62,020 nucleotides of DNA from Escherichia phage ArgO145. The stretch is taken from sequence record NC_049918.1, one strand, 5' to 3'. The stretch's first letter is position 1. Each line of letters begins with the position of its first letter. Positions 51,001-62,020 of the stretch are shown piece after piece. Made by a program: the position numbers.

Positions 51001-54000
51001 TTGCGGGTAATCTTGCTCAGTCCGGCGTTGACCCATCCAGTGGTCGTTTTAATGCGGTAATGAATGCGAACCAGAGTGACCAGGTAACCGGGCAGATTGA
51101 CACAACCACACGGGGGCAGGTATCGCAGGCAGATAAGTATGTTGCCGGGCTACAGGATGTTGCTGCTCTCGGTTCTGGTCAGAAGGCGGATGCGTTACAG
51201 AGTTTTAACTCTCTGGCAGACAGCAGTCTGGCAAAAGCTAAATCGGATGCACAGGCGGCGTTTACGAAACAGCAGGGGCGAGCCTCTCTTGTTGGCGCTG
51301 GTCTGGGTGCGGCAGGTGCATATGCGATGCATAAGGCTGGCGGTAGCGGAGGAAGTGGCGGTGCTAAAACACCTGGCACCGGCGCTAATGCCATTCAGCA
51401 TCAGGCTCAGAACTGGAGACTGTGATTATGGAGTACGGTAAATACGAAACACTTGCAAGATACGGTTATACCGGAGCAGCCCGCCCTCAGGGGGACTGGC
51501 AGACATCCGCAGCGCTGACCCGCCAGCAATACGACGACTGGCGCACCAGATATTTACCCCGTGTAGCAAGGCTGGCTGACCTTGGGGAGAACAACAGTCT
51601 GATGAATGCACAGCTTGCACGGGTGGGAGGCCTTGCCACTTCCAGTCTCCGTACAGCGCAGATGGCGCAGGATAACCAGATGGCGAGATACGGGGTAAAC
51701 CGCCCGGATAATCCCGACAGTAATACGCTGGGGTTACGTAATGCCCTGGCAATTGCTGGCGCGAAAAATGGTATCCGTGAAGCCGAACAGGATCGCCAGA
51801 TGAATATTCTGACGGGGGCTTCTGCACCGGCAAGACAGAAACTGAGTGTTGGCGGCCAACTGGTGGCAGCGTAAGGGGGCAATATGGGATACGGTTTACT
51901 GGATATTGCAAATCAGTCGCGGCGTGAGGCATTACAGGGAATAAGTGACGCAGACAGACGACGTGAAGAAATTGAGGCTGCGAACAAACAGATGGCGGCG
52001 CAACAGAAAGCGCAGAACAAGCAGAATATCGGTACGGGCATTGGTACGGGGGCGGCTATTGGCGCATCCGTTGGTGGTCCTGTTGGTGCTGTTGCTGGAG
52101 CAGTAATTGGCGGCATTGCTGGTTCTTTGTTTTAAGGAGTGGTGAATGAGCGGATTTGCACAGGGCTTACTTGCCGGATTCAGCACGGTTGACCAGGCAA
52201 TGACCCGTCGTAAGGAGCTTGGTTTGCGAGAAGCACAACTTGCTCAGCAACAGAAAAATAACGAGCGCGATTTTGAATTTGCGCAGTCGCAGTTTGAGCA
52301 TAATAAAGATGTTGATCAGCGGAACTTCGATTACAGAGCCAAAGTCGACGATCGCAATTATGCACTGCAGGAAAGGGAGTTTACCGCCAACCAGAATTAC
52401 CGGAATGCGTCACTGGGTATGGAGCAGCAGCGACTCCAGTTGCAGAAATACAACCAGCGACGGCTTGAGTATAACGATATGATTGCCCACAGCCAGCCAT
52501 TAATGACAGCGCTTGGAAAAGCAATTGATGCTGGCGATCAGGAGGCTGCAATGCGTATTTACGGGCAGTTACCAAAGGGACATCCATTAACTCTTATGTC
52601 AAGTGAAGGCTATGCAGCGAAAGCGGGTCAGGCCGTGAACAACCTGCAAAAAATCTTTGATGATAAGCCGGACAGGGCGACCGCTTCACTCAATACCCCG
52701 GAAAGTCTTGATGCGCTTTCCGTGGTATTTGGCCCGGAACTGCAACAGCGTATTGGCATGCCTGATTCAACAGGGAAAAAGACGATAAAAGAGGCCAGGA
52801 TTGGCAGTATTGTACCGGCACAACAGGAAGGGTACGTACTTATCGGCCTTGATCTCACATACAGCGATGGCTCCACCGCGCATAAACCTGTAACAGAATA
52901 CGGCAGTGCGCACCTTGATGATCAAACCGTGCTGGCGATACCCGTTGATAAGGCTATCGCTCAGGTCAGGGATCGCAGTAAATTCGCGGAAATTTCGAAA
53001 AATTACGGTTATTTCATGCCGAAGCAGGAGGGGCTTTCTCTGAAAGATATTCAGAAAGAAGCCAGCCAGGTAGCAGCGGAAGCGATCAAGAATGGTGGTA
53101 ATGCCCAGGCTGCGGTGGATGAATTTTTTGCTGTGCATGGTTCCACGGAACATCAGCAGAAAATTCAGCAACAGAAATTTGAACAGCTTTTACAGAAGGG
53201 GCAGACCTGGGCGGAGGGCGATCCGGTCAAACTGGAGTTTGTCAAAGCGACTGCCGCCAATATGCCAGCCTTGCTGGAACCGGGGCGTGAAAAGGAACTG
53301 GAAATTTGGTACCAGAATCACCTCCGGGATAAAAAAGCCGAACAGGAAAAAGCGAAGAATTATAGCGCTGCTGCATCAGCCGAAGAGATCAGAGGCTGGA
53401 TGAAGTAAAGTTACGCGGCAGTAACGCACTTCCCGTTAATCTCGTTCACTTACGCCCGACCATCGTGTCGGGCTTTTTTTTTACTGGAGTCTGTATGGCT
53501 TATTCAGATGAACAGCGCCCTGAAGCACAATTGGGTAACCGGAACCGCAGCAGCCTGAACATTAAGCAGCCGGGCGAAAATTACTGGCAGGATTTTTTCA
53601 GCAACCCGGAGAATGCTGTTGATCACAGCACATCGTTCAGCCTGAGCGATGTATTACCAACTATGGGGAAAGGTGTTGCTCAGTCCGTCCGGGGAACAGG
53701 GGAAATGGCCCGTGGACTCGGTGATGCGATGATTCAGAGCCCTGTAAAAACAGGGGCGCGTATTTTAAATGAGTTCAGCCGTATGGGGCTGCCGGGTGTC
53801 GCAACTGTTCAGGATATTTTTGCCGGTGGCAGCAAGGGGGCTGATGAGGTCATCGATACTCTGCCTGATGGTAAGAATGCGGTGACTGATACTGTCGGTA
53901 AAGGTCTGAAGGTAACCGGTAAGGCTGTCAGTGATGGTGCTAAAGTATCGGATGAATGGCTGACCGATAAGATGTCGCCGGGGGCGCAGCGGGCGCTGAA

Positions 54001-60000: not shown

Positions 60001-62020
60001 GATGGCAATGATGGCAGACCGGTACTTCACCACCAAAAAGAACGGCAAAACGTACTACATCAAACTCCATGATCCGCGCCTGATGCGTGCGATGAAGAAT
60101 ATGGGACCGGAAACCAGCAATGCCTTTGTTCGTACGCTGGGGAAAGTTAACCGCTTCCTGGCAACGGTGAACACGTCGTATAACCCGGAATTCCTGGTCA
60201 GTAACTTCATCCGTGACGTGCAGACGGCGGTGATGAACCTGAAGGCGGAGCAGGGAAGGAGCGACGGTAAACTGAAAGGGCTGGATAACTTATCCGCCCT
60301 GGCTGTGGTGAAAGACAGCCGTTCTGCCATGTCAGCCGTATACGCCAGTCTGCGTGGTAAAACCCTCACGGGAAAAGGTGCACAGTGGCAGAAGGTGTGG
60401 AAAGAGTTTGTTGAGGACGGAGGTAAAACCGGCTGGTTTAACATGGGTGACCTTGAAGGCCAGCAGAAGGAAATGGATCGCCTTGTATCGCTGGCGAAGG
60501 GAGGATGGAAAGGCCAGAGTATCGGTGCATGGAATTCGTTCCTTAACCTTGTCGAGGATGCCAACGGGGCGGTTGAAAACGCTCTGCGTCTTTCTGCCTA
60601 TAAACACGCCCGTGATGCCGGTTTGTCACGCCAGCAGGCGGCGTCTCTTGCCAAAAACATGACGGTGAACTTTAACCGTCGTGGTGAGCAGGGAGCGCTG
60701 ATGAACTCGCTGTACATGTTCGCCAACGCCAGCATTCAGGGGACCGCAAACCTGGTGAGAACGCTCGGACATCTTAATGGCGACGGGCCGTTACTGGAGC
60801 GCCTTCGCTGGAAGAATCTCAATGTACCGCAGAAAATCGCGCTTGCAGCTGTGGGAGCGGGTTATCTGCTTGGCTCGCTTAACCGCAGTGTTGCGGGGGA
60901 GGATGATGACGGGGTTAACTGGTATGACAAGGTGCCGTCTCATGTGAAAGAGCGTAACCTCGTCATTATGAAATCGGTGTTCGGGGGCAAGGCCGGAGAG
61001 TACTGGAGTATTCCTCTGCCTTACGGGTACAACGTTTTCTTCCTGCTTGGTCACACAGCCGAAGGGGTGGCAGCGGGCGACCTGACCGCTTCACGTGCTG
61101 CCGGTAATGTTGTTGGTGGTGTGCTTGGGGCATTCAGTCCTGTGGGCAGTGAAACGTCGGAAACACTGTCCGGGGCATTGCTGAAAAATGCAGCACCGAC
61201 AATTCTGCGTCCGTTTGCGAATCTTGCCATGAACGAAAACTTCATGGGGGCGCAGATTTACCAGGAGAACATGCCGTTTGGTACACCAAAACCTGACAGC
61301 CAGCTGGGAAGACGTTCAACGCCAGAAGCGTACAAGGCGTTTGCATCCTGGCTGAATGCGTTCTCTGGTGGCAGCCAGTACCGTTCCGGTGCGGTGGATG
61401 TCACGCCGGAATCACTGAAATACTGGATTGACTATATCTCCGGAGGGACAGGGCGCTTCATTTCCAAAACCACGGATGCGGCGGTGAAATCGCTGAACGG
61501 TATTGATATACCGGAGCAGCAGGTGCCCTTCCTGGGGAAAATTTCAGGTGAGGTGATGCCGTATGCTGACCAGCAGAAGATGTACGACCGGATGACAGAG
61601 GTTGCGCAGTATCACGCAGAGCTGAAGAGTCTGACCGGTGCAGAAAGAACGGCGTTCATTGACGAGAACAACGGAAAATTGTCGATGAACGGGCTTATGC
61701 AGGATACCCGGAAGAGACTGAAGGATTTGCGTAAACAGCGTGATGCCATTTACGCCGACAGTACTCTCAGTCTGGCGCAACAGTCGGCGATGGTGAAATC
61801 GGTTGAGCGGGATATGAAAATTGCCGTGGATCGGTTTAACCGCGAGTACAACAAAAAAGTGGGAGTGGAGTAAAGAACATGCCCCGTACGGAAGTGCGGG
61901 GCATGCTTAACGGGGTGTGTACATAAATGGGTACTGATATGACGATTATTTCGCCACTTTCTGTATTTAAATCAATGACTTAATACTTATATTCATTATA
62001 TCCATTTAACTAAGAGGACA

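Follow-up and report, generated by a model that had tools for sequence, protein, structure and literature searches.

The window analysed here is a stretch of 62,020 nucleotides (nt) from Escherichia phage ArgO145 (NC_049918.1). Near its end lies a single large open reading frame (ORF), at 53465 to 61873 on the + strand, which opens with a GTG and encodes 2802 amino acids; its position and length are those given in an earlier reading of this DNA without database searches (hereafter the sequence-only reading). We find that this gene encodes a giant "polyvalent" protein with two HExxH domains, which on balance we think is carried inside the phage head and ejected at infection. In the RefSeq record of phage PA2, the corresponding gene closes the late/structural block, about 120 nt before attR and after the tail and virion genes, and its product (gp48) is named "LPD5 domain-containing protein". 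The gene takes up about 13% of a short-tailed Shiga toxin (Stx) phage genome.

Translation probably starts not at the GTG but at an ATG at 53495, which follows a GGAG; the coding sequence would then run from 53495 to 61873 on the + strand and specify 2792 residues, or about 308 kDa. We favor this start because the 10-codon GTG extension sits within a terminator hairpin and T-run, because the extension is not conserved in phage phi24B, whose sequence differs there, and because RefSeq begins the PA2 orthologue at the equivalent ATG. An N-terminal peptide bearing on the start codon was sought in part of the phi24B peptide list and was not found. All residue numbers below count from the Met at 53495. 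The intrinsic-terminator-like element (53454 to 53482, + strand) consists of GCCCGACCATCGTGTCGGGC followed by T9; it overlaps the GTG extension, is strong, and stands 13 nt upstream of the ATG of an essential late gene. For the giant gene to be expressed, the late antiterminated transcript presumably has to read through this element.

A megablast search with the ORF returned 184 phage records, none with a query coverage below 80%. Full identity (100%) was seen for two Stx2a-converting phages, LC645438 and LC645443, and 141 records fell at 95-99% identity. On the strength of these matches, the window is identified as a short-tailed, 933W/phi24B-type Stx2a phage. Full-length orthologues with 96-99% identity include Sp5 ORF80 (ECs1242), phi24B gp47 (GenBank vb_24B_48), and PA2 gp48, which occupy the same place as the last late gene before attR and show only point differences from the window protein. 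For phi24B gp47, the identity is 96.1% and the differences cluster in residues 1-300 and 1801-1900. The published start codons and domain names for these orthologues vary, the latter including a hint of an AAA+ ATPase and a MuF-C "metallopeptidase"; neither label is supported by our analysis.

The predicted architecture is a single chain of about 308 kDa, in which an N-terminal module, an acidic Pro-rich linker, a central block of enzymatic type, and a helical C-terminal module follow one another, with all features on the + strand. Pfam recognizes four domains, all far over their cut-offs: LPD5 (PF18799; residues 1050-1199, nt 56642-57091; E = 6.5e-45), LPD1 (residues 1360-1439; E = 5e-24), MuF_C (PF18819; residues 1749-1838, nt 58739-59008; E = 1.3e-17), and LPD38 (residues 2475-2680, nt 60917-61534; E = 1.8e-48). 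In the central block, LPD5, beta-rich with some helices in the AlphaFold2 model, is followed by a domain of zincin fold that contains HEWFH, by another domain with an HExxH...E signature, and by the PBECR-type MuF_C. Polyvalent proteins combine several distinct effector or LPD domains in one chain, are encoded among late or virion genes of phages or the transfer genes of conjugative elements, and would enter the host cell along with the DNA, of which virion packaging is documented for phi24B by mass spectrometry; here, four Pfam domains and two HExxH domains share a chain encoded by the last gene of the late/structural block before attR. The polyvalent type proposed by the sequence-only reading is therefore borne out.

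Searches of the whole protein against PHROGs gave a full-length match to PHROG 616 (function unknown), while the match to the "DarB-like antirestriction" PHROG was limited to residues 2350-2680, that is, the LPD38 region. Homology to a tape-measure or spike protein, which would have spoken against a polyvalent protein, was not found in Pfam, PHROGs, NCBIfam, or the PDB. A sequence search of the PDB with the whole protein returned only noise, and profile searches of the PDB with the LPD5-zincin block, the C-terminal module, domain B, and the N-terminal module gave nothing credible, the few weak matches being designed helical repeats or coiled coils. The AAA+ ATPase (COG1483) suggested by Mondal et al. 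was rejected, since a search for the Walker A motif [AG]xxxxGK[ST] found none in the chain and neither Pfam nor NCBIfam matched an ATPase family.

The LAHEWFH sequence that the sequence-only reading had placed in mid-protein is present, with HEWFH at residues 1283-1287 (nt 57341-57355). It is one of two HExxH motifs, compared with 0.04 expected by chance from composition; the other, HEIIH(H) at residues 1550-1554, had escaped the sequence-only reading. A search with residues 1180-1702 yielded 1179 homologues. The first motif belongs to a zincin-like metallopeptidase domain, here called domain A (residues 1181-1445, nt 57035-57829). In an alignment of 70 sequences with 38-64% identity to the query, H1283, E1284, W1285, H1287, D1290, E1374, and E1381 are invariant, as are FGFRGVxFG, AHYE, and INLT upstream of HEWFH.

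To characterize the fold, an AlphaFold2 model of residues 1040-1445 was used (mean predicted local distance difference test score 88.4, predicted template modeling score 0.78). In chain order, a helix and three short strands come ahead of the HExxH helix, which is followed by a variable insert modeled with low confidence and then by a later helix bearing both invariant glutamates (1374 and 1381); HEWFH occupies model residues 244-248, inside helix 242-255. This order contains the elements of a gluzincin-type core, namely an N-terminal helix, a three-stranded sheet, the HExxH helix, and a later Glu helix, and it matches the zincin core as described by Iyer et al. (PMC5512222). The closest structural relatives of the model are MtfA (score 8.3), the Pro-Pro endopeptidase PPEP-2 (8.3), anthrax lethal factor (8.2), and PPEP-3 (7.9), followed by a putative Bacteroides zinc peptidase, PepO, neprilysin, thermolysin, pseudolysin, and botulinum light chains. 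The expectation that the HExxH segment would adopt a zincin fold was thus upheld by both the model and its structural relatives. These data support a zincin fold for domain A, with metal binding and catalysis predicted. The CLCA_X profile (NCBIfam NF041907) matches residues 1181-1436 over 243 of its 250 positions, at 149.8 bits against a cut-off of 260; judged by this profile match, domain A is homologous to CLCA_X, yet it is not a full-scoring member of the NF041907 subfamily model. Pfam LPD1 is the C-terminal part of domain A.

The second motif (HEIIH, nt 58142-58156) lies in domain B (residues 1446-1702, nt 57830-58600). Iterated searches showed this to be a separate and widespread domain, usually located after the first zincin or directly ahead of the C-terminal module. 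E1551 and E1606 (nt 58310-58312) are invariant, conservation is 90% or more at H1550 and H1554, and many relatives have HExxGH spacing. No Pfam family covers domain B, the sub-threshold matches near the motif being Peptidase_M76, Peptidase_M13, and DUF6782. At the sequence level, its signature would fit a minimal gluzincin. A profile-profile comparison with the LPD5-zincin alignment matched only the equivalent domain B region of homologues and has no bearing on kinship between domains A and B.

MuF_C follows domain B with a Pfam score of 64.2 bits against a cut-off of 27.6. Iyer et al. place MuF-C among the PBECR domains, which they predict to be RNases of the BECR fold whose first helix carries a His and one of whose late strands carries a Ser or Thr (PMC5512222). 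Alignment of 41 diverged homologues shows conservation of H1751 and S1815, which, following that description, are the predicted catalytic positions of a PBECR RNase. The phi24B preprint names MuF-C a metallopeptidase (10.64898/2026.04.10.717836), apparently in error; in this chain, the candidates for a peptidase are the two HExxH domains rather than MuF-C.

Between the N-terminal module and the central block lies an acidic, Pro/Gln/Gly-rich low-complexity stretch (residues ~735-885, nt 55697-56149). Pro accounts for 21 and Gln for 13 of the 160 residues from 731 to 890, and GLPSPD at 811 and GLPAPD at 827 are accompanied by three looser copies (RLPAPGD, MPQPES, and IPQPET). The sequence-only reading had described a Pro/Gln-rich stretch with degenerate GLP(S/A)PD repeats. 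The Pro-rich stretch is real, but we read it as a linker and not as a repeat array, because a tandem-repeat search found no DNA-level repeat in this region. Its conservation in close relatives only makes an acidic disordered linker the best interpretation.

The two ends of the protein behave differently from its middle. An exhaustive HMMER search with residues 1-1039 gave 332 matches. The conserved N-terminal module (residues ~141-460, nt 53915-54874) is invariably near the N-terminus in relatives of 2000-4665 residues, and a further conserved segment (residues ~871-1045, nt 56105-56629; consensus IEDFGEKI..GARKD...) invariably precedes LPD5. The N-terminal module ends in a conserved glycine zipper, G-x3-G-x3-G (residues 400-427, nt 54692-54775), and contains a second conserved, Gly/Ala-rich hydrophobic segment (residues 178-205, nt 54026-54109). 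Matches to Gly-zipper families are weak, and the module has no Pfam family and no PDB relative.

At the other end, the C-terminal 951 residues (residues 1842-2792, nt 59018-61870), mostly alpha-helical and including LPD38, recur as a unit. Homologues cover 93-100% of this module at 33-58% identity and always place it C-terminally, and no solved structural relative was found in the PDB by sequence or fold. Its N-terminal partners vary and include a methyltransferase and other polyvalent-protein domains (PF13489/PF05175, PF18760, PF18798, and PF18823), and a few proteins consist of little beyond the module. By tblastn, carriers include Stx phages, Vibrio phages, GP4-like Ralstonia phages, Bcep22-like Burkholderia phages, where the protein is annotated "DarB-like", and the Bacillus phages Page and Pascal.

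In dozens of relatives of 2000-4665 residues, the N-terminal module stands at the start and the C-terminal module at the end, with shuffled middles in between. Among close relatives, one has two copies of domain B and neither LPD5 nor zincin A, a second carries MuF_C twice, and a third is longer by an insert of ~280 residues. This last is a 2931-residue orthologue at 60% identity, in which the extra segment (residues 1318-1601) lies between the first zincin and domain B and has no Pfam match. A Salmonella fragment of the insert region carries the source name "phosphoribosyltransferase".

Cysteine is missing altogether from the 2792-residue protein, whereas the composition of the other window ORFs of at least 100 residues (mean 1.49% Cys) would predict about 42; the chance of finding none is about 8e-19. 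Nearly all of 91 giant relatives (1800-4665 residues) likewise have 0-1 Cys. The absence of cysteine may mark a protein that stays unfolded, or avoids disulfide trapping, as it leaves the capsid by way of the periplasm. Six other late-region ORFs also lack cysteine (37989-38996, 40290-40679, 42534-44321, 46835-48103, 50769-51425, and 52146-53408). They include the tail fibre and the 420-residue ORF just upstream of the giant gene, the counterpart of Sp5 ORF79 and phi24B gp48, which is essential in Sp5 and accounts for 179 peptide-spectrum matches (PSMs) in phi24B virions. These Cys-free late ORFs may encode further exposed or ejected proteins.

Published experiments on the orthologues show that the protein is both essential and present in virions. 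Deletion of Sp5 ORF80 (2793 residues) left the phage unable to form plaques or lysogens on K-12 MG1655, while DNase-resistant phage DNA remained at the wild-type level and the heads looked normal (PMC5155283). The virion location proposed by the sequence-only reading is confirmed for phi24B gp47, which ranks second by PSMs in purified virions (10.64898/2026.04.10.717836). Its peptides extend from residue ~204 to ~2806 in the 2811-residue ORF numbering of the preprint, so both ends of the protein are in the particle. In the gel slices, gp47 PSMs are highest in the first-listed samples (2188, 1686, 1187, 1260...), which fits a protein that is mostly full-length in virions, provided that sample numbering starts at the top of the gel. 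The batch sample gave 746 PSMs for gp47, 1674 for the capsid protein, and 101 for the portal (10.64898/2026.04.10.717836). Dividing PSMs by length and normalizing to 12 portals, we obtain roughly 23 copies of gp47 per particle; the same arithmetic returns the value of ~31 that the phi24B authors quote for gp84. Among more distant proteins, JC1 gp69, which shares the C-terminal module, is virion-associated, and the LPD38 protein of coliphage PTXU04 is critical for infection. The phi24B authors propose that gp47 is an encapsidated ejection protein and list its role as an open question (10.64898/2026.04.10.717836).

Taken together, we consider it somewhat probable that short-tailed Stx phages of the 933W/phi24B type carry this giant polyvalent protein inside the capsid and eject it at infection. 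About 10-25 copies would reside inside the T=9 head with the DNA and, at infection, would exit through the tail in an extended state. The absence of cysteine, the disordered linker, and the Gly-zipper and hydrophobic segments would suit transit of a narrow channel and the oxidizing periplasm. The terminal modules would provide a constant chassis for incorporation and exit, or a conduit, and the zincins and the RNase-like domain may come into play while the protein is being ejected or afterwards, when they would either cleave the polyprotein into working pieces or attack host targets. From the features described above, we infer that the protein is ejected, that its ends serve as a chassis, that the lack of cysteine relates to this passage, and that the central domains would be enzymatically active.

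Several observations weigh against this proposal. Although gp47 was found by mass spectrometry, it is absent from the cryo-electron microscopy map of the phi24B capsid shell and tail (10.64898/2026.04.10.717836), and with no density for the protein its location in the head interior is itself inferred. Sp5 ORF80 mutant heads do not bind anti-tail-fibre antibody, which fits a role in tail assembly or stability better than that of pure cargo (PMC5155283). The copy number is a rough estimate only, and a transmembrane-helix scan of the giant protein found no classical transmembrane helices, with one weak window at residues 180-198.

Mondal et al. concluded that the protein is a tail-assembly or head-completion factor, needed to build or stabilize the short tail on the filled head; its enzyme-like domains would then be secondary or vestigial. 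The antibody result, normal DNA packaging by the deletion mutant, and the position of the gene at the end of the tail-gene block agree with such a factor. However, the protein is missing from the resolved phi24B portal-tail complex, and some 23 copies of a 308-kDa protein on the tail would be hard to overlook. The AAA+/COG1483 hint could not be reproduced, in the absence of a Walker A motif or Pfam ATPase, and the catalytic motifs are invariant in distant relatives, suggesting that the enzymes matter. We regard a tail-assembly factor as unlikely. Another explanation draws on the proposal that the polyvalent class counters host defenses (PMC5512222): the protein would mainly carry DarB-like counter-defense effectors, injected against restriction, CRISPR, or other immunity, and would be dispensable on defense-free hosts. 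The PBECR RNase-like domain could serve such a purpose, and the C-terminal module is common to proteins annotated "DarB-like antirestriction". That label, however, stems from the other domains of those relatives and not from the shared module; P1 DarB is characterized by a methyltransferase and a helicase, and Pfam finds no methyltransferase, helicase, or ArdC-type domain in the Stx protein. The requirement for the homologue in both plaque formation and lysogeny on K-12 MG1655 points to a core infection role over an accessory anti-defense role, and a mainly counter-defense function seems to us improbable.

More doubtful still is the proposal of the phi24B preprint that a metallopeptidase digests peptidoglycan so that the ejected conduit reaches the inner membrane. 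Podoviruses must cross the cell wall, and a zincin fold is indeed present, but the preprint assigns the peptidase to MuF-C, which the descriptions of Iyer et al. place in the BECR-fold RNase class (PMC5512222). Moreover, the nearest relatives of the zincin are protein endopeptidases and aminopeptidases (MtfA, PPEP, lethal factor, and thermolysin) and not known cell-wall peptidase families, and Pfam detects no lysozyme or transglycosylase domain. Returning to the capsid-internal, ejected protein, a bolder form of it can be offered tentatively, as a possibility we hold with less confidence: the Cys-free N- and C-terminal modules may be a self-translocating chassis that threads out of the T=9 head and builds or lines a path across the envelope, with the exchangeable enzymatic middle, in this phage two zincins and an RNase-like domain, freed by autoproteolysis in the cell.

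The T7 proteins gp14-16, the P22 proteins gp7, gp16, and gp20, and the N4 virion RNA polymerase are packaged in the head, are needed for infectivity but not for DNA packaging, and are expelled ahead of or with the DNA. By analogy, the Stx giant protein would work in outline like these podovirus ejection and internal proteins. It differs from them in that no sequence or fold similarity was detected and in that one 308-kDa chain would combine what T7, P22, and N4 divide among several proteins.

Closer parallels are found among the phage-type polyvalent proteins of Iyer et al., which resemble the Stx protein in their many unrelated domains per giant chain, their virion-gene location, and their zincin-type hubs, and in which PBECR/MuF-C and LPD38 are typical (PMC5512222). 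Unlike those, the zincin here is not matched by the Pfam polyvalent-protein peptidase model and is instead of the CLCA_X/LPD1 type, and the second HExxH domain falls outside Pfam. Fixed N- and C-terminal modules such as those seen here are not described in the passages of their text consulted (PMC5512222). The CLCA_X family of Lenart et al. is likewise a domain of ~250 residues with HExxH and a nearby Asp, and it occurs chiefly in proteins of phages and plasmids, many exceeding 1000 residues; in HEWFHSLD, the Asp comes three residues after the second His, one position earlier than in the HExxHxxxD of that family (PMC3650047). The "DarB-like" megaproteins of Bcep22 and JC1 and the GP4-type Ralstonia proteins share the ~950-residue C-terminal module at 26-27% identity over 81-97%, and portal, capsid, and head-closure proteins of these phages likewise have homologues in 933W. 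Those megaproteins exceed 4500 residues and have other middle domains, in contrast to the Stx protein.

Some further observations concern the DNA around and within the gene. Directly 3' of the stop codon, at 61879-61906, a 9-bp inverted repeat (CATGCCCCG ... CGGGGCATG) with a 10-nt loop and no T-run is the last feature ahead of the attR-proximal end. An imperfect 10-nt tandem repeat of 2.4 copies at 56609-56633, in the coding region, is probably due to chance. The phi24B GenBank record HM208303 annotates three antisense ORFs within the giant gene (vb_24B_50c to 52c, at 4392-4715, 6867-7247, and 7598-7969 on the minus strand), and some other records break the gene into 3-19 "hypothetical proteins"; both are probably annotation artifacts. 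The upstream 420-residue ORF (52146-53408) is only ~80% identical to its 933W version, whereas many Stx phages match the giant gene at 98% identity or more. With the clustering of phi24B differences at residues 1-300 and 1801-1900 of the giant protein, this looks like a recombination mosaic across the gene junction (52146-53408 and 53495-54400).

Much about this protein was already known: it is annotated in RefSeq, the gene was deleted in 2016, the polyvalent class was described in 2017 and the zincin family in 2013, and the protein was seen in virions in 2026. What is added here is support for the zincin at the level of the fold, a second HExxH domain, the pattern of the end modules, and the absence of cysteine, together with the correction of two published labels, as there is no AAA+ ATPase and MuF-C is apparently not the peptidase. 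Shiga toxin genes spread among E. coli by way of short-tailed Stx phages, to which the giant gene is essential; the domain map indicates specific mutants to make in addressing the role of the protein. If the self-translocating chassis proves true, it would represent a general modular protein-delivery platform common to Stx, GP4-like, Bcep22-like, and many uncultured podoviruses.

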